From the NCBI GenBank assembly GCA_958296135.2, contig CATQHZ020000001.1, forward strand, positions 960,001-1,024,000: 64,000 nucleotides of DNA, in the 5' to 3' direction. This DNA is from an uncultured Poribacteria bacterium (GTDB taxonomy: Bacteria > Poribacteria > WGA-4E > WGA-3G). The notes beneath the pieces are model-generated. The model searched no databases. It saw only the letters and a list, made by a program, of their open reading frames with translations, and was not told the DNA's origin. The translations under genes and the position numbers were made by a program. This document shows positions 1,484 through 57,710 of this stretch, one piece after another (positions within the stretch are counted from its first letter, which is position 1; each line of letters begins with the position of its first letter).

Positions 1484-1707
1484 CACGGCGAGGGACAGTT
1501 CCTCGCGCTACGGTTTTGGTGCTGCTTGCGTTACGAGGGACAGTGGACATCTCTGCAGCGAGGCTGCAGAGATGACAAAGTTAAAGTAAGGTAGCGTGTT
1601 TACGCGGGGCGACACACGCACGTTTGCTGTAGACGTGACCGTGTTTACGCGGGGCGACACACGCACGTTTGCTGTAGGCGTGACCGTGACGGCCCTCGCC
1701 CTACGGT
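1484..1707. repeat. GTAG-type REP pair, one carrying a 148-bp insert (1543-1690)
   Basis: gcgagggacag..cctcgcgctacgg hairpins; insert GTGGACATCTCTGCAGC...GGCGTGACCGTGAC with an internal tandem duplication. Confidence 0.85.
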
Positions 1708-1711
1708 TCTC

Positions 1712-2677
1712 TCACCGTCTTTTCTGAAGAAAGCCGGTCTGATGCAATTCCTGCAGCACAAATGGTTCTATCGGGTTCTCGCTGTTGAGTCGTGCGTAGC
1801 CGATACCCTGTTCTGCGCAGAAGCGTTGCAAGTTGGCACAAAAAGTTTTGTGTTGATGCTGATACTGCGCAAGGGTTTCCTCATTCATCGTAATGGCTTT
1901 CGTTTCGCCGGTTTCGGCATCTTCCAATTGCCACTGGTGTCCGTAGGGTGAAGCCTTGTCCTTCGCCATGCCCGTTTGAATTGGCTCTGTCTCCTCCGAG
2001 CTCATTAGATGAATTGCGGTTAGCGAGAACCCGCGGCCTGCCAATAGCTTGAAACCGGTTGCGTAACCGTCTGCATCTAAAAAATCTGACAAGATGACAG
2101 TGACACCTGGCCGGGGTTGATGTGTTGCAAGGTGGCTGAGGCAGGCGGTTATTCGGGTTCCGTCTGCATGGCGAGGGACAGAGGCGGACGGCTGCCCTAC
2201 GGTTACGGAAGGCGGTTCCTGTGCCTCAATTGTCTCAAGAACCTTCGTGATGCGTGGGAACTGCGATTTTCCTGATGTCGGCGGCAGGGTTGCAACGAGG
2301 CGTTCTGCGAACGTGTAAACGGCGAGGCTGTCGGAATGGGCAACTGCAATGAAGGCTAGTGCCGCTGCAATCTGCTTTGCGCGCGTTAATTTTGTCGGAT
2401 TCCCAAACTGCATCGAGCGGCTATTATCGATGAGGCATGTGACTGGCAGTTCTTCGTCGGCTTGGAAGAGTTTGATAAAGGGCTTCTCTAGGCGTGCGTA
2501 GACGTTCCAGTCGAGGTGCCGCAAATCATCGCCGAGTTCATAGACGCGATAATCGGCGAATTCGATGCCGGTTCCGCGGTTGAGGCTTCGGCGTTCGCCT
2601 CTCAATTTTCCGCGGAACGAGTGTTTCGTGCGGATAGAGTAAGGTTGAAGTTGTTTCAGAAATTCCGGTGTCAACAT
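1712..2677 (-). CDS. DUF58 family (MoxR-associated VWA-like) protein
   Basis: GERRSLNRGTGIEFADYRVYELGDDLRHLDWNVYAR, LIDNSRSM, ILSDFLD. Confidence 0.92.
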   Translation of the reverse strand: MLTPEFLKQLQPYSIRTKHSFRGKLRGERRSLNRGTGIEFADYRVYELGDDLRHLDWNVYARLEKPFIKLFQADEELPVTCLIDNSRSMQFGNPTKLTRAKQIAAALAFIAVAHSDSLAVYTFAERLVATLPPTSGKSQFPRITKVLETIEAQEPPSVTVGQPSASVPRHADGTRITACLSHLATHQPRPGVTVILSDFLDADGYATGFKLLAGRGFSLTAIHLMSSEETEPIQTGMAKDKASPYGHQWQLEDAETGETKAITMNEETLAQYQHQHKTFCANLQRFCAEQGIGYARLNSENPIEPFVLQELHQTGFLQKRR

Positions 2678-2869
2678 CGGTTTTAGCGTATTTGTCCCAC
2701 AATGTGCCAGTTCGTGATGGACGCAAGTGCCAGATTCTCCACCGTTGCACGCTTTGGCAGCGCGCCTACGGGGTCGCGTACAAGTTCAGGCCTACAAGTT
2801 CAGGCCCACAAGTTTTGTGAGGAATTATAGCAGCTCTGAAGAAAAAAAGCAAGAAATTTCAAATTTAAC

Positions 2870-2898
2870 TTGACAAACGCGGGAAAATGTGTTATAAT
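2870..2898 (+). promoter_or_regulatory. Sigma70 promoter of the tRNA-tig operon
   Basis: TTGACA-17 bp-TATAAT, perfect consensus with TG extension. Confidence 0.85.
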
Positions 2899-2971
2899 TA
2901 TTAACGGTCTTCACGTTTAGGGGTGGTAGCGGCTGTAAAAAGTTTTGCTGCCTTTAACTCACAACGAATTT

Positions 2972-3046
2972 CGGGGCGTAGCGCAGCCCGGCTAGCGCGT
3001 CTGCTTTGGGAGCAGAAGGTCGGAGGTTCAAATCCTCTCGCCCCGA
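2972..3046 (+). tRNA. tRNA-Pro(TGG)
   Basis: Cloverleaf CGGGGCG../..CGCCCCG, anticodon arm tctgc-TTTGGGA-gcaga, T-loop GGTTCAAATCC; CCA not encoded. Confidence 0.95.
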
Positions 3047-3063
3047 TCTGCCATACAAAATGC

Positions 3064-3137
3064 GCGCCTATAGCTCAATCGGATAGAGCAACGGATTTCT
3101 AATCCGTAGGTTGCAGGTTCGATTCCTGCTAGGCGTG
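3064..3137 (+). tRNA. tRNA-Arg(TCT)
   Basis: GCGCCTA../..TAGGCGT acceptor, anticodon arm acgga-TTTCTAA-tccgt, GGTTCGATTCC. Confidence 0.95.
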
Positions 3138-3191
3138 TTAGGGAAGGCGTAGTTTGCGCGGGACAGGCGTTCGCGCTGCGATAAATCTTGC

Positions 3192-3264
3192 GGTGGATGT
3201 AGCTCAGGGGTAGAGCACTTGACTGTGGATCAAGTGGGCGTGGGTTCAAATCCCATCATCCACC
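3192..3264 (+). tRNA. tRNA-His(GTG)
   Basis: G-1 plus GTGGATG../..CATCCAC-C, anticodon arm cttga-CTGTGGA-tcaag. Confidence 0.95.
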
Positions 3265-3434
3265 TTTCATCGGCTTGTAGTGCGGGATACCCTCCTGTCC
3301 TGCACTACGGGGGGCATTCTAAGAGAGGATGGGCGTTAAGACGGGCCTGTCCGCCCGACGGTTTGCGGTTCTGCTTAGCGTGGTTACTGTTTCAATCGCG
3401 ATGCTGTTCTGTCGGGTTCAAAGCGAGAAAAGGT

Positions 3435-3507
3435 GCGCCGTTAGCTCAATTGGCAGAGCATCTGACTCTTAATCAGGCGGTTGAAGGTTCGATTCCTTCA
3501 CGGCGCA
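3435..3507 (+). tRNA. tRNA-Lys(CTT)
   Basis: GCGCCGT../..ACGGCGC, anticodon arm tctga-CTCTTAA-tcagg. Confidence 0.95.
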
Positions 3508-3564
3508 ATTTTTCTGTATGGCCCGAAGGGGGCTGCGTGAGTTTTTGAGCGCGCGAGCCCTTTT

Positions 3565-3649
3565 GGGCGGGTGCTGGAATTGGTAGACAGGATAGACTTA
3601 GGATCTATTGGGGTTACGCCTCGTGAGGGTTCAAGTCCCTCCTCGCCCA
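3565..3649 (+). tRNA. tRNA-Leu(TAG)
   Basis: GGGCGGG../..CTCGCCC, anticodon arm ataga-CTTAGGA-tctat, long variable arm. Confidence 0.95.
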
Positions 3650-3892
3650 TACTGAAACCCGTGGGTTATGGCTTTCTAGTGTTCGGCATGCGTGATGCGG
3701 TATCAAGGATGCAATAGCATTTTCAGGATGGTTATCGCGCTTCGGTGCCGCCGAGAAAACTCTACCTACTACGCGATAAAATCGGAGCGCATTCCAAAGT
3801 TTTTGGAGAAGTAACTATTCCGATAAAGCACCGCGAGGTGCTTCATGTCTATAGGAGATGGCCGTGTTCCGCTTTGCGGCCGTACAGAAAAT

Positions 3893-5197
3893 TTGAAAGT
3901 TGAAGTTGAAAGGCTAGACAGCACGCAAGTCCGTTTGGATATTGAGGTGCCTGTTGAAGATGTCAATCAGGCACTTGAGGAGACGTACCAGTCTCTCCGC
4001 GACCAGGTGGCGATTCCGGGTTTTCGGAAAGGGCGCGTTCCGGTCCGAATCCTAAAGACGCGTTACCCTGAGTACATCAACAGCGAGAGCGTCCGGCACC
4101 TCGTCGTCAACGCGTATGAAGAGGCTATCTATGCGGAACATTTGACACCTCTTGCGCAGCCTGTTTTCGCGCCGCCGCTCAAACAGCTCAACGTCAGCGA
4201 GAACCGGCCGCTCATCTTCTCCGCCACCGTTGACATCCGCCCGAGTCTCAGCCTGCCCCAGTATGATGAACTGACGACAGACAAGGCCCCTGTTGATGTG
4301 CCGCGCGAAGAAGTCGACGCGTATATTGAGCAGCTGCGTTCACAATCCGCAACTTATGAGCCGCTTGAGGACGAACGGCCCGTCCAAGAGAGCGATTGTG
4401 TCCGATTGGACTGGGAGTGCTTTATCAACGGTGAACACGTTGAGGCTGAATCCCGCCAAGATGTCGACGTAGAGCTCGGCGTAGGCGCATTTCACGAGCA
4501 ACTTGAGGCAGTACTCATTGGCATGGAAATCGGGGATACGCGGGCGGTAGAGATTCCGTTTGATGCAAACCACCCTTCGCCTATCCTCGCCGGAAACACT
4601 GCGCGCTATGAGTTGACACTGCACGCGCTTACGCGGAAGCTGCTCCCCGAGTTGGACGACGAATTCGCGAAGGACCTGGGATATGAAAATTATTCCCAAC
4701 TCTACGGCGTTATCTGGAACAATCTCGTTGAGGAAGAACGGAGCCGGCATGTGGAGCGTCAACGCGCTGAACTCTTAGAGCAACTCATTGAGAAAACCGA
4801 TATCACTGTGCCGGAAACTTTAGTGCAGCAGGCACTCCGGAACCTGCAACAGCAATTTGCTGCAGAGCAGGCGCAGCAGGCAGGGGCAGGCGCGTCAGCG
4901 GGGCATCCGAGCGGCGCGCTCCCGGCAGAATTGCGGCCAGATGTGATTAAACAGATAAAGCAGTCTTGGCTCTTTGATGCAATCGCCGAGCGCGAAGGCA
5001 TTCACGTTACTGACGATGAATTGGAATTAGAGATTCGGCGCGCCGCGGAGCATCAGAATAGGGATGCACAAGACTATGCCAACTTGCTCAAATCGAGCAA
5101 CCGCTTGGAAGATTTCCGCAGCCAATTACAGAACGAGAAAATCTATCAATTCCTGATCCAACGTGCATCCACAAGTCGTTCACTTATCATCACGTGA
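3893..5197 (+). CDS. tig: Trigger factor
   Basis: Ribosome-binding signature IPGFRKGRVP, LPELDDEFAKDLG; follows tRNA-Leu, precedes clpP; TTG at 3893 (LKVEVE) or ATG at 3845 as start. Confidence 0.95.
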   Translation: MKVEVERLDSTQVRLDIEVPVEDVNQALEETYQSLRDQVAIPGFRKGRVPVRILKTRYPEYINSESVRHLVVNAYEEAIYAEHLTPLAQPVFAPPLKQLNVSENRPLIFSATVDIRPSLSLPQYDELTTDKAPVDVPREEVDAYIEQLRSQSATYEPLEDERPVQESDCVRLDWECFINGEHVEAESRQDVDVELGVGAFHEQLEAVLIGMEIGDTRAVEIPFDANHPSPILAGNTARYELTLHALTRKLLPELDDEFAKDLGYENYSQLYGVIWNNLVEEERSRHVERQRAELLEQLIEKTDITVPETLVQQALRNLQQQFAAEQAQQAGAGASAGHPSGALPAELRPDVIKQIKQSWLFDAIAEREGIHVTDDELELEIRRAAEHQNRDAQDYANLLKSSNRLEDFRSQLQNEKIYQFLIQRASTSRSLIIT

Positions 5198-5315
5198 GTT
5201 TTTCGTGCTGGCATCAAGCCTTTAGGCGTTGACGTGGCAGGGAACTCCGTTTACCTATCCGCAGGTCGCGTCAAGCGCGGAGACTTGGTATAACGCGTCG
5301 CGAAATACGAAAAAT

Positions 5316-5915
5316 ATGCTTATCCCCTTTGTTGTTGAACAAACCAGCCGAGGCGAACGTTCTTACGACATTTATTCTCGGCTTCTTGAAGACCGGATTA
5401 TCATGATAGGTTCACCGATTGATGATAATACGGTAGCGAACGTTGTCACGGCGCAGATGCTATTCTTAGAGGGCAAAGACCCGGGTGCTGACATTACCCT
5501 CTATATCAACAGTCCCGGCGGTTCTGTCTCAGCGGGCTTGGCTATCTACGACACAATGCAGTATATCAAGTCTGATGTGCAGACGTGGTGCATCGGTAGG
5601 GCTTACAGCATGGGTGCTATTCTGCTTGCTGCGGGCGCGCCAGGGAAACGCTATGCGTTGCCCCACGCGAAGGCCCTCATTCATCAGCCGATGGCGAGCG
5701 GTATCGGTGGGCAAGCTTCCGATATTAGCATCCATGCGGCCGAGATTCTACAAGAACGGGAGCGGCTTTACCAAATCTTGGCGAAGCATACCGGTCAGCG
5801 GATAGAGAAAATCGCTGCGGATGCGGATAGGGATTTTTATATGACAGCGGCGGAGGCCCTTGAGTACGGCATCGTGGACGAGGTTGTTGCGCAGCGTGCG
5901 GAACAACAGCGGTAA
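5316..5915 (+). CDS. clpP: ATP-dependent Clp protease proteolytic subunit
   Basis: [33 protein letters not shown], catalytic SMG, IHQP, DRDFYM. Confidence 0.97.
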
Positions 5916-5995
5916 GCGCGGGGGTGCTCCGTGTGCGGTTTGTAAGCGCGCCTCTGGTGTGCGTGCTGCGTAAGCCAAAAAGGATAGAACCTATT

Positions 5996-18253: not shown

Positions 18254-18706
18254 TCACTCTGCGGTGGGTAGGTTGAGGGAAACCTGTTCCTCTCTCCATG
18301 CTTCGTCGATCCATTCGTCGCCGTGGTCTGGGTTGTAGATTAACCCCTTCTTGATGTGAAGATTAAGGTCAAGTTTTTCGAGAATGATATGTCCGATGAG
18401 GACGGGTGCTTCCGGTGGCAGGTCTGTTACCCGAATGGAGTCTGTCCGTTCCAAGAGGGTGAATTCGACTTCGGAATAAACGGTTCGGATGACGCTGCCA
18501 TTGGCGGTTAGTGAGTTGACTCTTCCGATGGGGCTGAGTCCGAGTTGTTCGATGATAGGTTTCGGTAGGGCTAATCGGCTTGCGCCTGTATCAACGAGGG
18601 CTTCTTCGACGGTGACGCGCCGGACCTCATTGGGGTTGATAGTGCCATCTTGGGCTCTAATCAGATCCGCCAGATTGGCGAGTTTGATTTGGGTTGTGTG
18701 CCGCAT
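18254..18706 (-). CDS. Retropepsin-like (clan AA) aspartyl protease, copy 1
   Basis: ALVDTGAS catalytic motif, TANG flap, VLIGHIILEKLDL. Confidence 0.88.
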   Translation of the reverse strand: MRHTTQIKLANLADLIRAQDGTINPNEVRRVTVEEALVDTGASRLALPKPIIEQLGLSPIGRVNSLTANGSVIRTVYSEVEFTLLERTDSIRVTDLPPEAPVLIGHIILEKLDLNLHIKKGLIYNPDHGDEWIDEAWREEQVSLNLPTAE

Positions 18707-18758
18707 TTTTTGTTCTCCTCTTGTGTTAAAGTTGAATCATCAGTGGATGTCCCTCTAT

Positions 18759-18787
18759 AGTCTATCACAAAACGATTCGGATGTCAA
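18759..18787 (-). promoter_or_regulatory. Sigma70 promoter of protease copy 1
   Basis: TTGACA-17-TAGACT on the minus strand with TG extension. Confidence 0.65.
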
Positions 18788-18823
18788 TAGAATGACAACC
18801 TTTTCCGCCGTAGGGCGAGGGCC

Positions 18824-18873
18824 GTTACGCCGAAACTTTGTCATCTCTGCAGCCTCGCTGCAGAGATGTCCAC
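18824..18873 (-). mobile_element. 50-bp REP-inserted miniature element (filled site)
   Basis: Absent from the otherwise matching paralogous REP at 19478-19503. Confidence 0.8.
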
Positions 18874-18922
18874 TGTCCCTCGCCATGCCCCGGTCCTCCC
18901 TTTGCCCGTAGGGAGGTTGAAA

Positions 18923-19375
18923 TCACTCTGCGGTGGGTAGATTGAGGGCAACCTGTTCCTCTCTCCATGCTTCGTCGATCCATTCGTCGCCGTGGTCTGG
19001 GTTGTAGATTAACCCCTTCTTGATGTGAAGATTAAGGTCGAGTTTTTCGAGAATGATATGTCCGATGAGGACGGGTGCTTCCGGTGGCAGGTCTGTTACC
19101 CGAATGGAGTCTGTCCGTTCCAAGAGGGTGAATTCGACTTCGGAATAGACGGTTCGGATGACGCTGCCATTGGCGGTTAGTGAGTTGACTCTTCCGATGG
19201 GGCTGAGTCCGAGTTGTTTGATGATAGGTTTCGGCAGGGCTAATCGGCTTGCGCCTGTATCGACGAGGGCTTCTTCGACGGTGACGCGCCGGACCTCATT
19301 GGGGGCAATAACGCCTCTCTTTGCTAAAACCAGGTCTTCAAGATTGGCGAGTTTGATTTGGGTTGTGTGCCGCAT
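18923..19375 (-). CDS. Retropepsin-like aspartyl protease, copy 2
   Basis: Near-identical tandem duplicate of 18254-18706, ALVDTGAS. Confidence 0.88.
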   Translation of the reverse strand: MRHTTQIKLANLEDLVLAKRGVIAPNEVRRVTVEEALVDTGASRLALPKPIIKQLGLSPIGRVNSLTANGSVIRTVYSEVEFTLLERTDSIRVTDLPPEAPVLIGHIILEKLDLNLHIKKGLIYNPDHGDEWIDEAWREEQVALNLPTAE

Positions 19376-19426
19376 TTTTTGTTCTCCTTTTGTGTTAAAG
19401 TGAATCATCAGTGGATGTCCCTCTAT

Positions 19427-19455
19427 AGTCTATCACAAAACGATTCGGATGTCAA
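19427..19455 (-). promoter_or_regulatory. Sigma70 promoter of protease copy 2
   Basis: Duplicate of 18759-18787. Confidence 0.65.
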
Positions 19456-19582
19456 TAGAATGACAACCTTTTCCGCCGTAGGGCGAGGGCCTGTCCCTCG
19501 CCGTGCTGGCTCGTTTCAAGAAACGTTCATGGTTTCTGTGGCTCAGCCATTTTTCGTTTGGATTGCGGGTTCGCGGGGGACA

Positions 19583-19736
19583 GTGGACATCTCTGCAGCG
19601 AGGCTGCAGAGATGACAAAGTTAAAGTAAGGTAGTTTGCTTTTGCGATGCAAAGGTCACGTCTATCAAGACAGGCGATCTGCATCGCCAGATCGACTGAC
19701 TACCGTAAACACGTTTTCTGTAGGCGTGACCGTGAC
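19583..19736 (+). mobile_element. 154-bp long form of the REP-inserted miniature element
   Basis: Same ends (GTGGACATCTCTGCAGC / GGCGTGACCGTGAC) between GGGACA and GGCCC of a REP. Confidence 0.75.
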
Positions 19737-19796
19737 GGCCCCCGCGCTACGGTGCGAGTGGCGTTTTTCGTAGTTGCAGCAATTGCAGCATCCTCT

Positions 19797-20126
19797 CTAC
19801 TGCAGCGGCGAATACGCTGTCGGCTCCAAAATCTTAGCACTCGCCACGTTTACCAGCGGCCCGCCGACTTCTGTCAGCCGTTTCGCTGCCTGCCACTCCG
19901 CATCGGCGATGAAGGCATCCCACGCGCGCTGATAATGCCCCAAATCTTCAAACGCAAGCAGATAGACGAGCTCCGTTGTCGTCGCCTCGCCGATGGCTGT
20001 TTCCCAAAAGCCAATCACTTTCATGCCGTGCTTTTCAAATAGGGGCAGCGTGATGTTGGCGAACCGATCGTTCAGTTTTTGCATTTTGCCGGGCACCACT
20101 TGATAGGTGCGCAATTCGTAGATCAT
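19797..20126 (-). CDS. NIPSNAP family protein
   Basis: MIYELRTY..PGK..RF..LFEKHG..W..F..D.EW..L.PT.YSPLQ. Confidence 0.93.
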   Translation of the reverse strand: MIYELRTYQVVPGKMQKLNDRFANITLPLFEKHGMKVIGFWETAIGEATTTELVYLLAFEDLGHYQRAWDAFIADAEWQAAKRLTEVGGPLVNVASAKILEPTAYSPLQ

Positions 20127-20259
20127 TGGTTTTCCTCCTATCGGCTGTTTTCGGTAGGGCGAGGGGTTGTCCTTCGCCGTGTATTGATTATCAGTGAAGA
20201 CATCTGTGCCTTCTGGGTTGCGGGTGTTTTTCGTTTGGGTTGCGGGTTCGCGGGGGCCA

Positions 20260-20358
20260 GTGGACATCTCTGCAGCGAGGCGGCAGAGATGACAAAGTTA
20301 AAGGTAGCGTGTTTACGCGGGGCGACACACGCACGTTTTCTGTAGGCGTGACCGTGAC
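20260..20358 (+). mobile_element. 99-bp form of the REP-inserted miniature element
   Basis: Same termini, inside a REP loop; second near-identical copy at 22126-22224. Confidence 0.75.
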
Positions 20359-20446
20359 GGCCCCGCGCTACGGTGAAAGTGGCGTTTTTCGTAGTTGCTG
20401 CATCGAGACGCGGGAGGTCTCTCCTACAGTTGGCGTGCTTTCGCCC

Positions 20447-21205
20447 TTACAAAATTCCGTATTTGTCGTACACTTCACGCAGGGTCGCGCCGTTGCGGAG
20501 GGCATCGCGGGTGCGGTTTTCACCGCTGACCTTCTGCAACGCAGCACGAATCACCTCATCCTCAATAGCCTGCGGGATCACAACTACGCCGTCAATATCG
20601 CCGAAGACGATGTCGCCAGGGTTCACCTGAACGCCGCCGCACTCGATCTGTGTGTTATAGGCAATTACCTCGCCGCGCCCGTTAGAATCCGCGGGCGAGA
20701 GCCCCGTCATAAACACCGGAAACTGCATCGCCTGAATTTGCCGCGCGTCTCGGATGAATCCGTCAATGATAGCACCGCGCGCGCCGCGTGCCCGTGCCGC
20801 CGTTGAGAGGAGTTCGCCCCAAATGCTGATGCATCGAGACCGGGAGGTCTCTCCTACCGGGGGAAATCGAGACCGGGAGGTCTCTCCTACCGGGGAGCAT
20901 TGAGACTGGGAGGGCTCTCCTACCGGGGTGGAGCAGATGAATACATCGTTCGGCTTGAGGCTATCCACCGCCGCGATTTCCATCTGGTAGGGTTCGTCTG
21001 GGATTTCATAGATGTCGACGCACTGCACAGTGAGCGCGCGCCCGACGACGATTGCCTCTGGATACAGCGGGCGGAGCGTGTGCCGCAACACCTGCTGACG
21101 ATACCCGGCTGCATCAAGCGCATCGGAAATCACGGCGGTGTGGAGTTGCGTTTCGATGAGGGCGAACAGTTCGGTATCGTTACGGGGTTGTTGGTTGGTT
21201 TTCAT
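20447..21205 (-). CDS. RraA family / HMG-aldolase-like protein with an in-frame REP-derived insertion
   Basis: TAVISDALD, WGELLS, IDGFIRD, VNPGDIVFGDIDGVVVIP. Confidence 0.9.
   Translation of the reverse strand: MKTNQQPRNDTELFALIETQLHTAVISDALDAAGYRQQVLRHTLRPLYPEAIVVGRALTVQCVDIYEIPDEPYQMEIAAVDSLKPNDVFICSTPVGEPSQSQCSPVGETSRSRFPPVGETSRSRCISIWGELLSTAARARGARGAIIDGFIRDARQIQAMQFPVFMTGLSPADSNGRGEVIAYNTQIECGGVQVNPGDIVFGDIDGVVVIPQAIEDEVIRAALQKVSGENRTRDALRNGATLREVYDKYGIL
20831..20929. repeat. Three tandem 33-bp REP units inside the RraA CDS
   Basis: (gc/aa)atcgagaccgggaggtctctcctaccgggg x3; same family occurs intergenically (20400, 34427, 51062, 59637). Confidence 0.9.
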
Positions 21206-21211
21206 GATGCC

Positions 21212-21730
21212 TTAGTAGTTGTGGTATCCCACCTCTTCTAACCGCGCCGCTTTCTCTGCGACACCGTCGCGCAACTTCGCTTTATAGGCGATGAGTTTCT
21301 CTTCGAGTTCGGGGAATTTGCGTGCCAAGATTTGCACTGCGAACAGTCCCGCGTTCCGCGCGCCCCCGGATCCGATTGCCATCGTGCCGACGGGGATGCC
21401 GGGCGGCATTTGCACGGTGGCGTAGAGCGCGTCAATGCCGTTGAGCGGCCCGCCGTCAATCGGCACACCGATGACAGGGAGTGTCGTATGCGCGGCGATG
21501 ACACCGGCGAGATGTGCGGCTCTCCCCGCGCCAGCGATGAGCACCTGTCCGCCGTTTGCTTTAATCTTTTCTGTCCATGCGAGCGTTCGTTCCGGCGACC
21601 GGTGCGCCGAGGAGATGGTTATCTCGAACGGGATCTCGAATTCTTCTAAGACCTTTGCGGCTTCTGCCATTCTGTCCAGGTCGGAATCGCTTCCCATGAC
21701 GATGCCGACGAGAGGGGTTTGCGTTTTCAT
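21212..21730 (-). CDS. purE: N5-carboxyaminoimidazole ribonucleotide mutase
   Basis: VGIVMGSDSD, SAHRSPE, IAGAG.AAHLAG, VQMPPGIPV. Confidence 0.97.
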   Translation of the reverse strand: MKTQTPLVGIVMGSDSDLDRMAEAAKVLEEFEIPFEITISSAHRSPERTLAWTEKIKANGGQVLIAGAGRAAHLAGVIAAHTTLPVIGVPIDGGPLNGIDALYATVQMPPGIPVGTMAIGSGGARNAGLFAVQILARKFPELEEKLIAYKAKLRDGVAEKAARLEEVGYHNY

Positions 21731-21889
21731 GTTTGTTGGTCCTCAAATTAATTAAGCGAAAATTCTTGATCCGTAGTTTGAGTTCGCCCGCGCTCAAACT
21801 ACGGGGTTATTGTATCCTTCGATAGGCGTGTTTGTCGCAGCGCATCTGCGCGCGCTATGGGGCGACCGGCGTTTCTTGTCTCTGTCAGT

Positions 21890-22275
21890 GATCGCGAGGG
21901 ACAGTGGACATCTCTGCAGCGAGGCGGCAGAGAGGACAAAGTTTCGGCGTGACGGCCCTCGCGCTACGGTGGAAACGGCGTTTCTTGTCTCGGGCAGCAT
22001 CGCGAGGGGAACCCTCGGCGATTAGCGATCGCCGGGCCCTCGCGCTACGGTGTATGGCCTGTTTCCAGGTTCTCGCGCTACGGTGGAAACGGCGTTTCTT
22101 GTCTCGGGCAGCATCGCGAGGGACAGTGGACATCTCTGCAGCGAGGCGGCAGAGATGACAAAGTTAAAGGTAGTGTGCTTACGCGGGGCGACACACGCAC
22201 ATTTTCTGTAGGCGTGACCGTGACGGCCCTCGCGCTACGGTGTATGGCCGGTTTCCAGGTTCTCGCGCTACGGTA
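21890..22275. repeat. REP array with 50-bp (21904-21953) and 99-bp (22126-22224) inserts
   Basis: Repeated tcgcgaggg...ccctcgcgctacgg units and duplicated spacers. Confidence 0.85.
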
Positions 22276-22287
22276 GAGTGACGGGGT

Positions 22288-23082
22288 TTATGAGTAAAGC
22301 ACGTGTGAATCCCTCGGAATGATCAGCGGTTTCGGACCGGGCGTTGGAAATTGCGATGCCCATTCTTCCGCATCGTAATCGCGGGTGACGAAACAGGCGC
22401 GGTGCGCCGGGACAGCATGCTTCAGCCCGATCCGCGTGGCCATTTTGACGCACCCGTCGTAAAACGGAAATTCACCTTCTGTCGGATGGTTCGTCAGGAA
22501 ACCGATATCGGGTTGATGCGCCGCCACTGCCGCAATCAGTTTGTCGTGCGCCGCGAAGGTGTTAATCGGATCGCCGCTGAAGTAGAGCGTTGGGCCATCG
22601 GTTGCGATGACGTATCCCAGGTGCGTCACATCGGGTGGCGCGATGTCGGCATCGATATCACCTGCGGGCGGCTTCGCGTAAATGGCATGAACCGTGAGGT
22701 TTTCAGTTAACGTCACAGATTGCCCTGCGCGGATTTCGGATACGTTGGCTTTGGCGACATCTGTCTCTGTTAGAATCTGGGCGACACTCTCTTCGGGGCC
22801 AATAAACCGTGTTGCGGAAGAGGTGTCCCAGATGCGTCGAATGGATTCGGGACAGGTGTGGTCTCCGTGCGCGTGCGTCAGCAGCACGAAGTCTGTCGGC
22901 AGTTGCGCTTCATTGAGCGGCGGTGTCGTATAAATAAACCGGTCCGCGGGGCGTTCCCGTGGAAAATAAGGATCGATTTGGATAATCGTGCGATCAGAAT
23001 CTTTCAGCGCGAAGCTGCTCTGTTCAAACCAGTGCACAGCGACAGAGTCCTTTGTCACGTTTAAATCAACGAGTGGATGCAT
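22288..23082 (-). CDS. MBL-fold metallo-hydrolase (UlaG-like)
   Basis: IDPY, THAHGDH, YFSGD, VPAH. Confidence 0.9.
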   Translation of the reverse strand: MHPLVDLNVTKDSVAVHWFEQSSFALKDSDRTIIQIDPYFPRERPADRFIYTTPPLNEAQLPTDFVLLTHAHGDHTCPESIRRIWDTSSATRFIGPEESVAQILTETDVAKANVSEIRAGQSVTLTENLTVHAIYAKPPAGDIDADIAPPDVTHLGYVIATDGPTLYFSGDPINTFAAHDKLIAAVAAHQPDIGFLTNHPTEGEFPFYDGCVKMATRIGLKHAVPAHRACFVTRDYDAEEWASQFPTPGPKPLIIPRDSHVLYS

Positions 23083-25598: not shown

Positions 25599-25648
25599 GT
25601 GGACATCTCTGCAGCGAGGCTGCAGAGATGACAACGTTTCGGCGTAAC
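25599..25648 (+). mobile_element. 50-bp REP-inserted miniature element
   Basis: GTGGACATCTCTGCAGCGAGGCTGCAGAGATGACAACGTTTCGGCGTAAC between GGGACA and GGCCC. Confidence 0.75.
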
Positions 25649-36154: not shown

Positions 36155-36630
36155 GCCGCGCGCGAGAGATCGCGAGGGACAGGTCTTCGCGCTACGGTGA
36201 AAGGGGCCGTTCTGGGGGATCGGGGCTTCGCGAGGGACAGGCCCTCGCGCTACGGTATGCAGGGGCGTTTTTGTTTGGGTCTAAGGATTGCGAGGGGCCG
36301 GTCTTCGCGCTGCGGTTAAAGGGGGTTCTCTTGTTGTGAACGATCGCGAGGGACAGGTCTTCGCGCTGCGGTGAAAGGGGCCGTTCTGGGGGATCGGGGC
36401 TTCGCGAGGGACAGTGGACATCTCTGCAGCGAGGCGGCAAAGATGACAAAGTTTCGGCGTAACGGCCCTCGCGCTGCGGTGAAAGGGGCCGTTCTGGGGG
36501 ATCGGGGCTTCGCGAGGGACAGTGGACATCTCTGCAGCGAGGCGGCAGAGATGACAAAGTTTCGGCGTAACGGCCCTCGCGCTACGGTGAGACGAACGAT
36601 GTCGGGGCTTCGTGAGGGGCAGGTCCGCGC
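36155..36630. repeat. REP array with filled (36414-36463, 36522-36571) and empty (about 36228-36255) sites
   Basis: Unit gaaaggggccgttctgggggatcggggcttcgcgagggaca[insert]ggccctcgcgct occurs with and without the insert. Confidence 0.88.
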
Positions 36631-48639: not shown

Positions 48640-49310
48640 TTCAATCGTAGCGCGAGGGAAAACCCGGCGATTCGTGCTCGCCGGGCCCTCGCCCTACGGA
48701 CTAAGGCGCATTTTCACCATCGCGCGAAAGAGGCCCTTATTAACCGTAGCGCGAGGGCCTGTCCCTCGCGATCCTTCGATCCCTCAAAACGGCCCCTTTC
48801 ACCGTCGGCCCCTTTTCACCGTAGCGCGAGGGCCTGTCCCTCGCGATCCTTCGATCCCTCAAAACGGCCCCTTTCACCGTCGGCCCCTTTTCACCGTAGC
48901 GCGAGGGAAAACTTGTTCCTCGCGAACCCTCTCGCTAGACCGATGCCTGGCGCGGCACAGTGGACATCTCTGCAGCGAGGCTGCAGAGATGACAAAGTTT
49001 CGGCGTGACGGCCCTCGCCCTACGGACGAAGGGGCTTTTTTACTGATGCCTGGCGCGGCACAGGCCCGCGCCCTACGGACTAAGGCCCCTTTTCACCGTA
49101 GCGCGAGGGCCTGTCCCTCGCGATCGTTCGCCGACACGAAAACCGCCCGAAGCCCCGGCTTTTCTGTGCAGGTCGCGGCATTGCGAGGGGAACCCTCGGC
49201 GATTCGTGATCGCCGGGCCCTCGCCCTACGGTAGAAGGGGCCTTTTTACCGATGCATGGCGAGGGACAGGCCTGCGCCCTATCGAGACGCGGGAGGGCGC
49301 ACCTACAAGC
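48640..49310. repeat. REP array with a 50-bp insert at 48960-49009
   Basis: GTAG-hairpin units with duplicated spacers; empty sister ggcgcggcacaggcccgcgcc near 49052. Confidence 0.88.
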
Positions 49311-51410: not shown

Positions 51411-51451
51411 TTAAAAGGGCCGCTCTGGACCTGGATGCTGTAACCTAAACC

Positions 51452-51605: not shown

Positions 51606-51662
51606 ATTTATGTCATTGATTTAGGGCACGAAATTTAACGCAACTAATAAAGGAGCACGAAC

Positions 51663-52213: not shown

Positions 52214-55200
52214 ATGATTAGAAAATCTTTCCTCAATCTTTGCGTTTTTCTGCTCATCGCCGGTGTTGTCGTCATGACCACCCCGATGGACGTGCACGCT
52301 ATCGCATTGAAGGATATCAAGTGGTATTACAAGCAGGCTGGCGGAAGCGTCACAGCCTCGCCCACCACCGGCGGGCAGACCCTCGCCGCCGGCGATCAGG
52401 TTATCGTTGATGTGCGGTTTCAGGTATCTACTTCGGATACGAATGTTCGGACCGTTGATGTCTATGCTTCAGCTATCTTATATCTAAATATAGGCACCAC
52501 TCCTGAATTAGAAGAAGTTGAAGCAAGACCGGTCGATAACGACGGTAACTTCTACTCGGGTTCCGTTAATGAGCAGCGTGCCGTACGAATGCGGGATGAT
52601 ACGGAGATTGTTCGGTTTGTCTATATAGTCCAGACGGGCATGGGCGCGGTCTCCCTGGATGATGATAAGGATAGCTCTGGCAAGTACTTCTACACTGGCC
52701 ATTGGCAAGCTATCGTCAGAGGCGATTCATATCGCCAAACCGTTCATCCCCATCGGCACGGTCATTCGACGTTTACGGGTGATCCTGTTGCCTATCCATA
52801 TTGGCTAAACTGGGGGGATGCGATCCCCACTTCTCCCATGGTCCTCGGTCTCACAGGACCTCCCATGGTGGATGCCACTCGCCCGGAGCTGGCAACGACA
52901 TCGACATCCGTTTTCCCGGTGAAGTTCGTTGGTGCCCCGACGCATACCGGCCCGTCCCGCTATCACAAGGTGCGCCAGACGTGTTACCACTATCACGGTC
53001 AATTCGGTAGCTCTTACACGGGCTACTGCCCTTTGGTGGAAGATCATGGCTGGGCCCTTCCCACCGGGCCGAACGCGGTGACTTTGGCCAATAGCCCGGA
53101 AGCCGGCTATTACGGCTTAGGCGACACTATTCAAATTCAGGTGACGTTTAGTAAACCTGTCACCGCCGACCCTGGTGTGACGCTGAGGATGGACTACACG
53201 TTCAACCCATTGGACCCGAACACGGAGTTTGGACTTGATGCTGCGGATAGGGCTGACGGAGATACAACGCTCACCTTCAAACACACCGTGGTAACTGGAG
53301 ATCGGAAGTTTGATGGTGTCGATCTCACCTGGAATAATCTGTGGCATAATACCCGTACCGAGCTGGGGGATGCAGCAACTATTATTTCAGCACCGAGGCA
53401 CATAAAGGACCTGGCTGGCAACACTTTTGATCCTGGTGCTTATGTTGAATTTGGTCACGATTTTGAAACGCCGCTTCGGGCGTTTCTGCTCAACATGCCT
53501 ACGCTCAGCAGTTCTAATGATGCGGCATATCCGCTTTGGAACCCGAGTGCTACGCCCGGTCAATATGCCGCTGCCTACGCCGTGGAGGTCATCAAGCACC
53601 TTGTGGATACTGTCCCGCCGACGGTGTGGATTCCCGGCGTGATAAAGAATGGTGAGACGCACACCGAGGATAGGCGCAATGCGATAGTCAACCTGGATTC
53701 CAGTGCATCTGGGTTGCCTGTGACAGATTTTGCGGCAGGGACTACGGAATCGGTGTCGCAGGACGGCGCGTTTGACGTTGAATTCCGCTTTACGAATTAC
53801 TCTGCCGCTGAGCCGAAGAGTGCCATCGCCGAGGAAATCGGGACGACGTTTGGCGCGGAGGACATCGCCATCACCGATGCAGCTGGGAATTCGCTGGACT
53901 GGACGGTTGATGCCCCGGAATACATTGGGCTCGACCATCGTGCCCTACAAAATTTCGGTTCGCCTCCCAGTGGGCATGCGCCTGGTGATGCGAAGAATTC
54001 AGCGTCGTTCTTGGTTTACAAAGCGCGGATTACGCCCGCCGCTGGTTTTAGGGGCGATGTGACGATTCAGGTTCCCGCGGGTGCCACGCAGGACATTGCG
54101 GGCAACGGGAATCTGGTATCGAATACGTTAACAGTGCCGGTGGACAGCGTGGTGGGTACGCCGGAGATTGTTGCGCCCCCCGCGGGTGTCTATACCGCCG
54201 GAGATAAGATTGAAGTGTCGGTGACATATACCCAGGAGAATCTGCGGTATGAAGGGGCCAACCTGCCGTATCTGGTGGTGTATCTGGGTGAACAGGTGTT
54301 AGCGAATGCGCGGCATGCTGTTTGGACAGCGGCGGAAGACACGAATTCGACGAAAGTGACGTTTGCGTATACGGTGGCAGCCACGGACACGGTGGCAGAG
54401 ACAGTGCGTGCTCCCTCTGTCGAGATACAGGTGCCGGTAGGGACGACGTTGCTGTCTGGGCAACAGCGGCAGTCTGGGACAGCAGCGCCTGCGATGGATT
54501 CTGGTGCTGCGCCGGCCTCGGTGCCGGCGGCGGCCCCGGGGGGTTCGCCTGTCGTCCGGGAGACACCGGTTATACCGTTTGTGCCGTTTTTCCCCGAGGA
54601 GACTTCGCCGAAGGCTGATGCCTCCGAGGTGCCTCGCAGTCCGATTGTTTTCAACGAGTTTGGCAATGGCAGCGGTGCTGCAAACGACTGGCTGGAATTG
54701 CGGAATGTCACGGGCGCGGCTGTCTCCTTGAAAGACTGGGAGCTGAGCGTCGTGCAAGATGACAAAAAGGAAGATACATCGCTCGTCGTTTTCGCGGATG
54801 TGAGCGTGCCTGCGAATGGACTGTTGCTGCTGGTGAGTACCTCGCCGGCCAAAACGCCTCTCGCCGGTGGCGATGATATTGCCACTTCCGCCGTAGAGCA
54901 GAAAGGTTCACCGCATCAGTATCTCGTTGCCTCGGGCCTCGCGTTGCCGGACGATGGGAAGTTCCTGTTGATTTTGCGCAACGCCAAGGAGAAGTTGGGC
55001 AAGAATGAGGCGTTCGTGGATGTCGCCGGTGGCGGTGGCAGTGACACGGATGCGTTCGTTCGCGAGCAGACAGGTGACTATGATACATACGTGTGGCCGT
55101 TGCAAGTGCGTGAAGCTCCCGGTGGTGATACCGAAGGGGCCCTCGGCTCTGGTAAGGTGTGGCAGCGTGCCAAGGCAGATATTGTGGGTTACCACAAAGA

Positions 55201-56320
55201 TGCCTGGGCAGAGGCGGCGTTCACCGGTATCGGCTATGACAGGACTGTCTCGAAGTCTGCGGCGACGGGTGGCACCCCGGGGTATCCGAATGGTGCGGTG
55301 AAAACGGCAGCAGCTACGCCGAAAGGCAGTATCACTATCAGCGAAGTCATGTTTGACTCGGGTGGCGGCACACTGCCACAGTGGATAGAGTTGTATAATA
55401 AATCCAAAACCGAGGCACTCAATCTGAACCGGTGGGAACTGGAGTTCCAGAATGTGGATTCCGAAGATCTCGTCGGTAGGCCGATTGTGGCGTTGACGTT
55501 GCAAGAGAAGGTGATTCAACCGAATCAGACGCTGCTGATTGTTGCGGGGCCTGCGCGTGCGTCATCAAGCACGGTATTTCCTGCGGAGCGCGTTTACAAC
55601 CTGTTGGCTTTGCATCAGCGGAACCTGCGCATTAAGACTGCGCGGGATACGTTCCTGAGCGCGGAGGGGTTCTACCTGAAACTTACCGATAGCAACGGTA
55701 ACCTCGTAGACGAGGTTGGCAACACTGATGGCAATCGTCGGACGAAAGATGCACCGGCGTGGGCGTTACCGGTGAGTGCCGAGGAAGGTGTTCGGAGTTC
55801 GCTGATTCGGCGTTACGACAACGGCGTTGCACTGAAAGGGAAGGAGCGTGCGAGTTGGGCTCTGGCATCGAACCTCAAGCGACTCGCCGTGGCAGAACTC
55901 CATTATGGGCATGCCGAGGACATCGGCACGCCGGGGTATCGGAAAGGCGGTGCCTTGCCGGTGGAGTTGTCAAGTTTCTCGGTGATGCACAATGAAGCCG
56001 GCGCGGTTGTCTTAACTTGGACGACGGAGTCTGAAGTTGACAACGCTGGGTTTAACCTGCGCCGCAGCGAAAAACGCGATAGTGGTTTCACGCTGCTGAA
56101 TGCTGCGCTGATTGCGGGTGCTGGCACAACGGGTGAGCGTCAGACGTATACGTTTACGGATACGTCTGCGAAGCCGGGTGTTGAGTACTATTATCAGATC
56201 GAGGAGGTCGCGTTTGATGGCCGGCCGGAGACGTTGGCGATGCGGATGTTGCGGGGGCCTGTCTCTGCGGCGAATCGGATGCTGACGACGTTTGGTGCTC
56301 TGAAACAGCAGGCGAAATAA
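52214..56320 (+). CDS. Large secreted protein with Ig-like and two lamin-tail domains
   Basis: Signal peptide; Ig-like VPAGATQDIAGNGN; LTDs IVFNEF..DWLELRN and ITISEVMF..QWIELYN; LPVELSSF..WTTESEVDNAGF..YYQIEEV domain; C-term PVSAANRMLTTFGALK. Confidence 0.88.
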   Translation: MIRKSFLNLCVFLLIAGVVVMTTPMDVHAIALKDIKWYYKQAGGSVTASPTTGGQTLAAGDQVIVDVRFQVSTSDTNVRTVDVYASAILYLNIGTTPELEEVEARPVDNDGNFYSGSVNEQRAVRMRDDTEIVRFVYIVQTGMGAVSLDDDKDSSGKYFYTGHWQAIVRGDSYRQTVHPHRHGHSTFTGDPVAYPYWLNWGDAIPTSPMVLGLTGPPMVDATRPELATTSTSVFPVKFVGAPTHTGPSRYHKVRQTCYHYHGQFGSSYTGYCPLVEDHGWALPTGPNAVTLANSPEAGYYGLGDTIQIQVTFSKPVTADPGVTLRMDYTFNPLDPNTEFGLDAADRADGDTTLTFKHTVVTGDRKFDGVDLTWNNLWHNTRTELGDAATIISAPRHIKDLAGNTFDPGAYVEFGHDFETPLRAFLLNMPTLSSSNDAAYPLWNPSATPGQYAAAYAVEVIKHLVDTVPPTVWIPGVIKNGETHTEDRRNAIVNLDSSASGLPVTDFAAGTTESVSQDGAFDVEFRFTNYSAAEPKSAIAEEIGTTFGAEDIAITDAAGNSLDWTVDAPEYIGLDHRALQNFGSPPSGHAPGDAKNSASFLVYKARITPAAGFRGDVTIQVPAGATQDIAGNGNLVSNTLTVPVDSVVGTPEIVAPPAGVYTAGDKIEVSVTYTQENLRYEGANLPYLVVYLGEQVLANARHAVWTAAEDTNSTKVTFAYTVAATDTVAETVRAPSVEIQVPVGTTLLSGQQRQSGTAAPAMDSGAAPASVPAAAPGGSPVVRETPVIPFVPFFPEETSPKADASEVPRSPIVFNEFGNGSGAANDWLELRNVTGAAVSLKDWELSVVQDDKKEDTSLVVFADVSVPANGLLLLVSTSPAKTPLAGGDDIATSAVEQKGSPHQYLVASGLALPDDGKFLLILRNAKEKLGKNEAFVDVAGGGGSDTDAFVREQTGDYDTYVWPLQVREAPGGDTEGALGSGKVWQRAKADIVGYHKDAWAEAAFTGIGYDRTVSKSAATGGTPGYPNGAVKTAAATPKGSITISEVMFDSGGGTLPQWIELYNKSKTEALNLNRWELEFQNVDSEDLVGRPIVALTLQEKVIQPNQTLLIVAGPARASSSTVFPAERVYNLLALHQRNLRIKTARDTFLSAEGFYLKLTDSNGNLVDEVGNTDGNRRTKDAPAWALPVSAEEGVRSSLIRRYDNGVALKGKERASWALASNLKRLAVAELHYGHAEDIGTPGYRKGGALPVELSSFSVMHNEAGAVVLTWTTESEVDNAGFNLRRSEKRDSGFTLLNAALIAGAGTTGERQTYTFTDTSAKPGVEYYYQIEEVAFDGRPETLAMRMLRGPVSAANRMLTTFGALKQQAK

Positions 56321-56353
56321 ACGTAGAGCGGGGGGTTGTCCCTCGCGATGTAG

Positions 56354-56393
56354 AAAACGGCCGTGGCCCCTTGGGGGTTGCGGCTGTTTTTTT
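56354..56393 (+). terminator. Intrinsic terminator
   Basis: ACGGCCGTGGCCCC/GGGGTTGCGGCTGT stem plus T-run after the 52214-56320 gene. Confidence 0.65.
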
Positions 56394-56399
56394 CGTGTG

Positions 56400-57710
56400 C
56401 GATGGTAAAAAGGCCCCTTAGTCCGTAGGGCGCGGTCCTGTGCCGCGCCATGCATCGATGAAAAGGCCCTTAGTCCGTAGGGCGCGGTCCTGTGCCGCGC
56501 CGTGCAATGGTAAAAAGGTGCCTTAGTCCGTAGGGCGCGGTCCTGTGCCGCGCCATGCATCGATCTGTAGAGAAGATGGCCGAAGTCCCGGGGCTTCTGC
56601 CGTTTTTCGTGTGGTCGAACGATCGCGAGGGACAGTGGACATCTCTGCAGCGAGGCTGCAGAGATGACAAAGTTTCGGCGTGACGGCCCTCGCGCTACGG
56701 TAAAAGGGGCTGTTTGGGCGGTCAGGCGATCGCGAGGGACAGGCCCTCGCGCTACGGTGAGAGGGGCTTTCTTGTCGGTCGGGGGATCGCGAGGGGAACC
56801 CTCGGCGATTAGTGATCGCCGGGCCCTCGCGCGACGGTGAAAGGGCCCCTTAGTCCGTAGGGCGCGGTCCTGTGCTGCGCCATGCATCGACCTACAGAGA
56901 AGTCCCGGGGCTTCGGGTGTTTTTGGTGTGGTCGAACGATCGCGAGGGACAGTGGACATCTCTGCAGCGATGCTGCAGAGATGACAAAGTTTCGGCGTGA
57001 CGGCCCTCGCGCTACGGTTAAAAGGGGCTGTTTGGGCGGTCAGGCGATCGCGAGGGACAGGCCCTCGCGCTACGGTGAGAGGGGCTTTCTTGTCGGTCGG
57101 GGGATCGCGAGGGGCACCCTCGGCGATTCGTGATCGCCGGGCCATCGCGTGACGGTGAAAGGGCCCCTTAGTCCGTAGGGCGCGGTCCTGTGCTGCGCCA
57201 TGCATCGGTCTGTAGAGAAGATGGCCGAAGTCCCGGGGCTTCGGGTGTTTTTGGTGTGGTCGAACGATCGCGAGGGACAGGCCCTCGCGCTACGGTGAAA
57301 GGGGCCTCTTTCGCGCGACGGTGAAAGGGCCCCTTAGTCCGTAGGGCGCGGTCCTGTGCCGCGCCATGCATCGATCTGCAGAGAAGATGGCCGAAGTCCC
57401 GGGGCTTCTGCCGTTTTTCGTGTAGGTCGGTAGATCGCGAGGGACAGTGGACATCTCTGCAGCGGGACTGCAGAGATGACAAAGTTTCGGCGTAACGGCC
57501 CTCGCGCTACGGTAAAAGGGGCTGTTTGGGCGGTCAGGCGATCGCGAGGGACAGGCCCTCGCGCTACGGTGAGAGGGGCTTTCTTGTCGGTCGGGGGATC
57601 GCGAGGGGAACCCTCGGCGATTCGCGAGGGACAGTGGACATCTCTGCAGCGAGGCTGCAGAGATGACAAAGTTTCGGCGTAACGGCCCTCGCGCTACGGT
57701 AAAAGGGGCC
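56400..57710. repeat. Largest BIME-like REP array (~1.3 kb) with four 50-bp inserts (56635-56684, 56952-57001, 57447-57496, 57634-57683)
   Basis: Higher-order duplicated blocks of GTAG REPs and spacers. Confidence 0.9.

Follow-up and report, generated by a model that had tools for sequence, protein, structure and literature searches.

The window analysed here is a 64-kb stretch of a poribacterial chromosome (C1:960001-1024000 of a 5.19-Mb assembly) that contains 14 copies of a short element, named M, each lodged in the loop of a repetitive extragenic palindrome (REP). All 14 copies are placed between ACA and GG in the loop of the REP GCGAGGGACAGGCCCTCGC (REP-1), which also occurs empty 17 times in the window at no more than one mismatch. 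The 17-mer GTGGACATCTCTGCAGC matched the window 15 times at no more than two mismatches, compared with no match in 100 shuffles. Fourteen of these matches are the M copies that a sequence-only reading of the window had listed earlier, and the remaining one (25619-25635, minus strand) corresponds to the second hairpin arm of the copy at 25599; a 20-mer from the second arm recovered the same places in 14 of 14 cases. The left flank is ACA (once CCA) and the right flank GGCCC in all window copies. The longer left flank reads GAGGGACA in 11 of the 14, GGGGGACA at 19583, GGGGCCA at 20260 and GCGGCACA at 48960. All 14 point the same way with respect to the REP, and the sizes are 50 bp (ten copies), 99 bp (two), 148 bp (one) and 154 bp (one). 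The placement of 14 copies at one exact loop nucleotide, as described in the sequence-only reading, was confirmed by the 17-mer, the 20-mer and the flanks, and the flanks likewise bear out entry into REP variants at 20260 and 48960. Its fixed orientation and size classes held as well, and the predicted fold returned its 12-bp stem.

Coordinates are collected in Table 1. Contigs assembled from short reads (four runs from one sample of one study) span M junctions at 21904 and 25599. These contigs end inside repeats (for example at 25614/25635), and the joints in their alignments are repeat-induced; a precise-excision junction would read GGGACAGGCCC. A segment of ~ 500 bp that carries a short minus-strand gene is duplicated in the window (18965-19473 versus 18296-18805), and the REP that follows each duplicate is filled at 18824 and empty at 19483.

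Table 1. M copies, an empty target, host and associated repeats, and RAYT genes. Positions are those of the window unless preceded by C1.
Feature	Position	Strand	Remarks
M, 148-bp long form in REP loop: 40-bp left hairpin module + AAAGTAAGGTAG + 2 x 45-bp unit + CGTGAC	1543..1690	+	Period 45, 2.1 copies at 1595-1688
M, 50 bp, in REP loop with GGCGAGGG arm	18824..18873	-	17-mer and 20-mer matches, flanks
M, 154-bp form, in GGGGG-type REP	19583..19736	+	Probable orthologous empty REP in congener G002
M, 99 bp, one 45-bp unit, in REP variant GGGGCCA^GGCCCC	20260..20358	+	No REP here in congeners
M, 50 bp	21904..21953	+	Left junction spanned by short-read contigs, four runs
M, 99 bp	22126..22224	+	
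M, 50 bp, in isolated REP	25599..25648	+	No REP here in congeners; both junctions spanned by short-read contigs
M, 50 bp, unit 1 of tandemly duplicated REP and spacer	36414..36463	+	
M, 50 bp, unit 2 of the tandem REP and spacer duplication begun at 36414	36522..36571	+	
M, 50 bp, in REP with chimeric arms	48960..49009	+	Left arm GCGCGGC, right arm CCCTCGC
M, 50 bp, block 1 of three duplicated REP-array blocks	56635..56684	+	
M, 50 bp, block 2 of the three REP-array blocks	56952..57001	+	
M, 50 bp, block 3 of the REP-array blocks	57447..57496	+	Empty paralogue with matching flanks at C1:263674
M, 50 bp	57634..57683	+	
Empty target example, REP-1 hairpin GCGAGGGACA^GGCCCTCGC	56732..56750	+	17 such in the window
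Repeat X copies	C1:1769690, 1983216, 2941585, 3117035, 3242289, 4674231 and others		
RAYT-1, divergent RAYT-like gene, 179 aa	C1:4791068-4791604		
RAYT-2, clear RAYT, Y1 gene	around C1:3734478-3734807		
Repeat Y copies	C1:1144603, 1677069, 3108305, 2785648, 203039 and ~ 30 more		

The family extends over the whole chromosome (C1, 5.01 Mb) of this genome, which is 94.7% complete. The 40-bp left module of M gave 214 matches at up to seven substitutions, all on the chromosome, and 191 of these are closed by a right arm that pairs with the left arm at 7/8 or better. The other 23 left modules comprise three reverse-arm artefacts and two copies in another repeat, and most of the rest have a REP-like left arm with an imperfect partner. 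ACA precedes M in 197 of the 214 copies, GG follows it in 185 of the 191, and the final six bases are CGTGAC in 97 copies and CGTAAC in 80. The 50-bp form predominates (129 copies), followed by forms of 99 bp (18), 148 bp (7), 103 bp (6) and 197 bp (6), with rarer ones of up to 686 bp. Many copies in the genome are truncated or internally deleted. Of 171 filled REPs, 152 have arms that pair without any mismatch. Filled REPs with chimeric arms (window 48960-49009, C1:851888 and C1:852410) look like products of recombination between REPs.

The 50-bp core of M consists of GTGGA, a 12-bp hairpin and a tail ending in CGT(G/A)AC. The two ends (GTGGAC... and ...CGT(G/A)AC) are not inverted repeats, and comparison of the empty ACAGG with its filled counterpart, ACA and GG separated by M, reveals no target-site duplication (TSD), only a 1-nt ambiguity of G. 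The junctions thus agree with the sequence-only reading, which had noted neither a TSD nor terminal inverted repeats (TIRs), and they set M apart from classical miniature inverted-repeat transposable elements. When folded as single-stranded DNA (ssDNA), a filled REP is predicted to keep its own 8-bp stem and to add the 12-bp hairpin (predicted ΔG -26.4 kcal/mol, z -6.4). The 12-bp hairpin begins 5 nt from the left end of M, and the fold shows no more than a predicted weak 4-bp hairpin close to the right end of the short form. The tag before the main hairpin is GTGG plus one base and not GTAG, so that the main hairpin lacks the GTAG/CGTC tags of the RAYT type (REP-associated tyrosine transposase). 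Covariation in the stem of the main M subfamily was not significant (three compensatory cells; shuffles averaged 0.69 and reached at most 4), and stems that differ but still pair occur only in a few diverged copies.

Longer forms are built from the left module, the joint AAAG(TAAG)GTAG, one to five tandem copies of a 45-bp unit and the terminal CGT(G/A)AC, and the unit itself is a GTAG tag followed by a hairpin. The number of units per copy is 0 in 146 copies, 1 in 24, 2 in 10, 3 in 7, 4 in 3 and 5 in 1; the 154-bp form at 19583 carries a different insert from that of the 99-bp and 148-bp forms. The unit is nearly confined to M: of 108 units, 92 have a left module no more than 900 bp away, and the remaining 16 are mostly in decayed or diverged copies that escaped the left-module search. 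The size series had been attributed to internal deletion. This did not hold: the long form is the short form plus tandem 45-bp units, and every old, diverged copy shows the short architecture, so the short form did not arise from the long one by deletion.

M is a discrete insertion and not merely a variant of the REP. One line of evidence comes from a second host, repeat X, an imperfect palindrome of ~ 200 bp with GTAG tags and ATACCAAAT/ATTTGGTAT ends, present in ~ 16 copies in the genome and without a match in Rfam. X always adjoins the 5' side of genes, which are otherwise unrelated (ribosomal proteins, trpE, an aminotransferase and others); the congeners G002 and G001 have two weak matches to it and none, respectively. 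M or a diverged M sits at AACA^GG in eight X copies, and three X copies are uninterrupted at this point. REP-1 and X share no arms and have only ACAGG in common. At least five arm subtypes of REP-1 itself carry M, with filled/empty counts of 97/210 for CGCGAGGG, 33/113 for GGCGAGGG, 25/88 for CGCGGGGG, 10/21 for TGCGAGGG and 4/24 for CGCGGCGG. Occupancy is sparse in GGCGGGGG (0/39), GGCGCGGC (1/130) and GGCGAGGC (1/57), the last two of which read GGCACAGG in place of GGGACAGG. In addition, four copies of an M-like element lie within the apical loop of M's own hairpin.

Filled and empty sites could also be paired. An empty paralogue, with both 35-nt flanks at least 80% identical, exists for 23 of the 191 filled sites. 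These give 41 filled/empty pairs, and in 33 of them the two sites lie over 10 kb from each other; in the best pair (C1:852123 versus 2576013) the flanks are 100% and 97% identical. Between species, gene synteny with G002 and G001 is good (76-91% identity), yet the REP arrays turn over, with 2368 REP-1 pattern matches in G002 and 759 in G001 versus 477 here. GAGGG- and GGGGG-type REP arms are present in the examined regions of the congeners, and the M pattern (M1) is absent from all 30 relatives scanned, both congeners included. We compared filled intergenic spaces in C1 0.70-1.30 Mb that had both flanks within 480 kb of G002. Rapid turnover of REPs and breaks in synteny limited the comparison, which yielded one usable pair, two sites without a congener REP, and otherwise arrays that are not comparable. 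In the usable pair, the counterpart of 19583 in G002 is an empty GGGGG-type REP. It has its inverted REP partner and its left-hand gene in common with the filled REP, to which it is probably orthologous. The comparison of filled and empty alleles at orthologous REPs, which the sequence-only reading had proposed, thus gave one probable empty site; the loci 25599 and 20260 have no congener REP and the others cannot be compared. The X host, the subtypes, the paralogue pairs and the 19583 orthology, taken with the nesting, the strand bias and the unlinked variants described below, indicate repeated gain or loss at one nucleotide. The earlier description of M as a discrete, non-coding, non-autonomous insertion at one loop nucleotide is supported by X, the subtypes, the filled/empty paralogues and 19583.

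The orientation of M tracks the local GC skew on C1. The strand bearing the tag and hairpin of M is the locally G-rich strand in 150 of 214 copies (70%) versus 426 of 787 empty REPs (54%), and with clusters collapsed the counts are 109 of 157 M copies versus 250 of 491 empty REPs (Fisher 5e-5). The bias of M is ~ 70% in each arm subtype, whereas the empties are at 51% in two subtypes and 65% in one. We detected no relation between M orientation and the direction of neighbouring ORFs (open reading frames), for which the calls were crude and contaminated by REP arrays. Replication direction was taken from local GC skew. Replichores defined by the extremes of the cumulative skew gave unequal arms and were replaced by this local measure. 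The skew of C1 is positive at 0.5-1.75 and 2.75-3.25 Mb and negative elsewhere, with several sign changes, and the cumulative extremes lie 1.69 Mb apart on the 5.01-Mb chromosome; this irregularity suggests large inversions or an assembly problem.

With moderate confidence, we read M as a family of tiny non-coding, non-autonomous insertions that enter ACA^GG at hairpin tips and are moved as ssDNA by a Y1 HUH enzyme acting in trans. In this proposal, long hairpins would take up M at their tips, where ACA^GG is unpaired, in one orientation and without target duplication, the main target being the loop of the genus-wide REP-1 and the second target the centre of the palindromic repeat X. M would move as ssDNA on the lagging-strand template, and the Y1 enzyme would recognise the M hairpin together with its 5' GTGG tag and then cut and rejoin M. 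The Y1 transposases of IS608 and ISDra2 work on ssDNA of the lagging-strand template (PMC6006769). RAYTs cleave beside GTAG-tagged hairpins under guidance of the tag, a GTGG tag shifts the cut to CC or CA, and they cut and join REP DNA in vitro, with movement in cells not demonstrated (PMC8266576). The GTGG tag one base before the hairpin, the left junction after CA, the lack of TIRs and TSDs, the fixed orientation and the bias towards the lagging-strand template make hairpin-guided single-strand insertion by a Y1 enzyme in trans the most likely mechanism, and it is from these features that we infer both the mechanism and the kind of enzyme.

The genome encodes only two Y1 HUH genes, both RAYT-like. 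The candidate for M would be RAYT-1, a divergent member that scores 57 bits against the RAYT model (cut-off 80) and 29.8 bits against Y1_Tnp, and whose sole match among solved structures is Escherichia coli TnpA_REP (E 0.03). Family and protein searches did not find RAYT-1 in G001 or G002. Four M-filled REPs surround the gene, one 267 bp downstream and three at 141, 249 and 382 bp upstream, on the same strand as RAYT-1; all four are REP-1 copies as well. RAYT-2, a clear RAYT (127.6 bits, cut-off 80), is flanked by another REP, GTAGGAGAGACCTCC..., and has an orthologue in G002 that is 56% identical. The X hairpin GTAG-TTCGGG resembles the REP that flanks this orthologue in G002. REP-1 is more abundant in G002 than here, though RAYT-1 was not found in either congener, and REP-1 may persist or even thrive there without its presumed enzyme. 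No canonical TnpA was found in the genome. The search for Y2 transposases was uninformative, as its control was silent in all genomes searched. Two families of TnpB-only insertion sequences (ISs) are present, IS-A (~ 1.47 kb, ~ 10 genome copies) and IS-B (eight genome copies), the latter at 57-1387 (minus strand) in the window with an ORF at 237-1403 (minus strand) for a 388-aa TnpB that carries OrfB_IS605 and Cas12f1-like TNB domains. The ends of both families differ from those of M, and neither is therefore a cognate IS of M.

Several observations weigh against hairpin-guided insertion by a Y1 enzyme. No longer element with M ends was found in the genome, where orphan right ends are decayed loop inserts and none flanks an ORF, and no autonomous parent was found in 40 relatives; the enzyme for M accordingly remains inferred. 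Among 185,579 species representatives there were 17 single M matches, about the number expected by chance, none with the hairpin or tail. Two scans of metagenome contigs from JGI returned no M match, nor did plasmids and phages. We detected no tandem M-M junction of the kind a circle would give in the genome. The sequence-only reading had proposed looking for the two termini around an ORF and for a circle junction (CGTGAC/GTGGAC), and neither was encountered in the assembled genome. The right junction of M (...RAC|GG) departs from the published dinucleotide rule of RAYTs, with CT, CA and CC failing in both registers, and the short form has one large hairpin in place of two subterminal ones. 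The irregular skew profile bears on the replication direction from which the strand bias is read. In other families, RAYT-1 has homologues of 36-54% identity with REP-1-like GTAG repeats in their flanks, so RAYT-1 may more simply be the REP-1 enzyme, which could spread filled REPs as whole units. At 19583, only the left flank is conserved in G002 and the right flank is not. No REP at all exists in the congeners at 25599 and 20260, where the filled REPs may therefore have arrived whole. Finally, GGCGGGGG is never occupied despite having the same loop, and such uneven occupancy among subtypes with the same loop fits partial spread of whole units.

The last points belong to the explanation that survives best besides the Y1 reading, namely that M entered the loop of REP-1 once or a few times and that the filled REP, as a long-looped variant, was then spread whole by RAYT-1 and by array duplication, with no insertion activity at present. 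In addition to the two loci without a congener REP and the empty GGCGGGGG and nearly empty GGCGCGGC subtypes, it is favoured by the restriction of RAYT-1 to this species among the three congeners, by the filled REPs around this gene and by retention of the GTAG tag in 171 of 191 filled REPs compared with 715 of 787 empty ones. Array duplication further multiplied some filled REPs, as the sequence-only reading had supposed: there are 22 filled-filled paralogue pairs, and tandem blocks lie at 36.4 kb and 56.6-57.7 kb of the window. Spread as a unit does not, however, account for M at the same ACA^GG in X, which has no REP-1 arms, or for its presence in at least five arm subtypes when congeners without M share arm types in the examined regions. 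The 23 filled sites with near-identically flanked empty paralogues and the probable orthologous empty site in G002 also argue against it, as do the strand bias that recurs in every subtype and the M haplotypes, which are unlinked to REP arm type (chi-square p 0.28-0.75). We therefore consider it rather unlikely that unit spread explains the family by itself.

The age and internal variation of the family bear on how its copies arose. A covariance model built from 11 M copies, X-borne ones included, was run on 40 relatives and gave, beyond this genome, a single match of 26 bits, in G002. The match is an M2-like relic with an older GGAAACC loop and the tail AGGCGTAAC; no further M-type hairpins were found in G002, and none in G001. 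The stretch of G002 that holds the relic aligns end to end with C1 at ~ 2,594.6 kb, where the same relic occurs, and the M family thus predates the split of the two species; its burst to ~ 210 copies is confined to this lineage. The 129 short copies differ at 3.3 positions on average, and 47 of the 50 positions are nearly fixed. Nearly all variation falls at three biallelic sites, 23 (T/G), 37 (A/C) and 48 (G/A), each at ~ 45%, and G at position 23 places an A.G mismatch in the stem. The same three alternatives recur among long-form and old, X-borne copies. The three sites are in linkage equilibrium (p 0.23-1.0) and all eight haplotypes are common. This counts against the Y1 reading, since it points to copies having recombined with one another, or to the sites having changed repeatedly, and not to simple copy-and-paste descent.

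Recombination could in principle do all of the work. In that case no transposase would be involved, M would spread by homology-driven gene conversion or template switching through the REP arms and the hairpin, and it would be lost by slippage between the arms. The equilibrium of the three sites, both with one another and with the short or long form, is in line with this, as are the few chimeric-arm copies (window 48960, C1:851888 and 852410), the abundance of truncated or internally deleted copies and the lack of a dedicated enzyme among those found. But X shares only ~ 5 nt with the REP loops and carries M at the same point, the arms of filled REPs are as a rule perfectly complementary and chimeras are rare, and gene conversion predicts neither a replication-strand bias that empty REPs lack nor nesting within the loop of M's own hairpin. 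We regard it as distinctly unlikely.

That the filled REP is kept for a function of the host, as a structured RNA or a protein-binding site, with copy number reflecting selection and not mobility, appears very improbable. The predicted composite structure is stable and 47 of the 50 positions are nearly invariant, as such a function would have it, but a recent burst explains the low divergence equally well, many copies are decayed, orientation to neighbouring ORFs is not consistent and both congeners have the REP but not the M pattern. M had no match in Rfam at E ≤ 1 in window 18700-22400 and at eight further loci; Rfam 15 returned only five tRNAs at the gathering threshold in the window, where five tRNA genes are clustered at 2972-3649 (plus strand). 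The sequence-only reading had brought up the IS110 family. That M is a miniature of a REP-targeting element of this family (such as IS621 or ISPpu9), moved by a DEDD recombinase with a bridge RNA, is scarcely credible, since neither PF01548 nor PF02371 has a match in the 94.7%-complete genome (controls were positive in 6 of 14 genomes), no longer element has M ends and a double-stranded circle of 50 bp is implausible. In its favour, elements of this family enter REPs at set positions and make no large duplications (PMC1525189).

The proposed movement of M by a Y1 enzyme invites comparison with known systems. Like REP and REPIN repeats with their RAYTs, M belongs to short, high-copy intergenic hairpin repeats that form mosaic arrays resembling bacterial interspersed mosaic elements, a 4-nt tag stands 5' of the hairpin (GTAG in REP-1, X and the 45-bp unit of M), and a RAYT gene lies among the repeats, which around RAYT-1 are M-filled and REP-1 copies at once. 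Unlike ordinary REPs, M has a main hairpin tagged by GTGG and one spacer base, it resides inside the loop of another REP rather than beside genes, and the filled or empty state of the host hairpin makes each gain or loss visible. REP families regularly inserted at the centre of other palindromes have been described, with hundreds of unoccupied copies of the target palindrome in Thermomicrobium roseum (Di Nocera et al. 2013, PMC3733652). In those families a GTAG REP sits as guest in a simple palindrome. The host of M, by contrast, is already a GTAG REP and has a RAYT of its own, and the guest is GTGG-tagged and modular, with 0-5 tandem units, a strand bias and paralogous filled/empty pairs.

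Among ISs that target REPs are IS1397 and ISKpn1 of the IS3 family and IS621, ISPpu9/10 and ISPa11 of the IS110 family (PMC1525189). They resemble M in that the REP hairpin is the specific target and is rebuilt when the insertion is removed in silico. They differ from it in being autonomous elements of 1-2 kb with their own transposase and few copies, whereas M is non-coding, 50 bp long and present in ~ 200 copies.

PATEs (palindrome-associated transposable elements) are miniature derivatives of IS200/IS605. M shares with them the lack of TIRs and TSDs, insertion 3' of a short fixed sequence (ACA in 197 of 214 M copies), a near-terminal hairpin and a preference for the lagging-strand template, which for M is deduced from GC skew. 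PATEs are mobilised in trans, as is proposed for M. M is unlike PATEs in that no IS200/IS605 element with M ends and no canonical TnpA was found and the short form has a single large hairpin. The pneumococcal BOX element has the structure boxA-boxB(n)-boxC, with a variable middle tandem unit between constant ends. Its modular build with a variable tandem middle is like that of M, with which it has no sequence relation; BOX elements are not known from the loops of other repeats. Full-size ISs that target REPs and REPs nested in palindromes are thus already known. A 50-bp non-coding, modular element at one nucleotide of another REP's loop, with filled/empty paralogues and a strand bias of its own, was not found in the literature searched, supplements excluded, which may hold closer examples of REPs in palindromes.

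Other repeats and replicons were noted in the same genome. Repeat Y is a mini-element of ~ 100 bp in which an outer stem (CCGATTTTGACG.../...CGTCAAAATCGG) surrounds two hairpins whose stems vary between copies, and the conserved motifs CAGTGT, ACACATCTTCGG and CCTAC join these parts. Copies of Y are nested within the M stem, within long forms of M and within the left ends of the two TnpB IS families. Some paralogues lack Y, and Y has no Rfam match. Contig C2 (143,886 bp) has a GC content of 36.8% versus 54.4% for the chromosome; the values for C3 and C4 are 67% and 60%. These three contigs, which may be plasmids or of foreign origin, carry no M copy.

The spread of REPs is an unsettled matter, and M may leave a visible trace of how such repeats spread. 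The filled and empty REP marks, the strand bias and a candidate Y1 enzyme make the question testable in one organism. More tentatively than for its mobility in trans as such, we can picture M as the first visible guest of a REP system, a GTGG hairpin that a RAYT-type Y1 enzyme might put, as ssDNA at the replication fork, into exposed loops (those of REP-1, of X and of M itself), each event leaving a filled or empty mark; this remains a possible but doubtful scenario. If true, RAYT-driven movement of DNA, never yet caught in vivo, could be read out naturally in this species, which would also offer a minimal cargo of 50 nt with loop-specific targeting. If only unit spread and recombination were at work, M would still be a clean example of how bacterial mini-repeats nest in a hierarchy. 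The loop of a REP can serve as a landing pad for a 50-nt cargo, and this bears on hairpin-directed insertion of single-stranded DNA.

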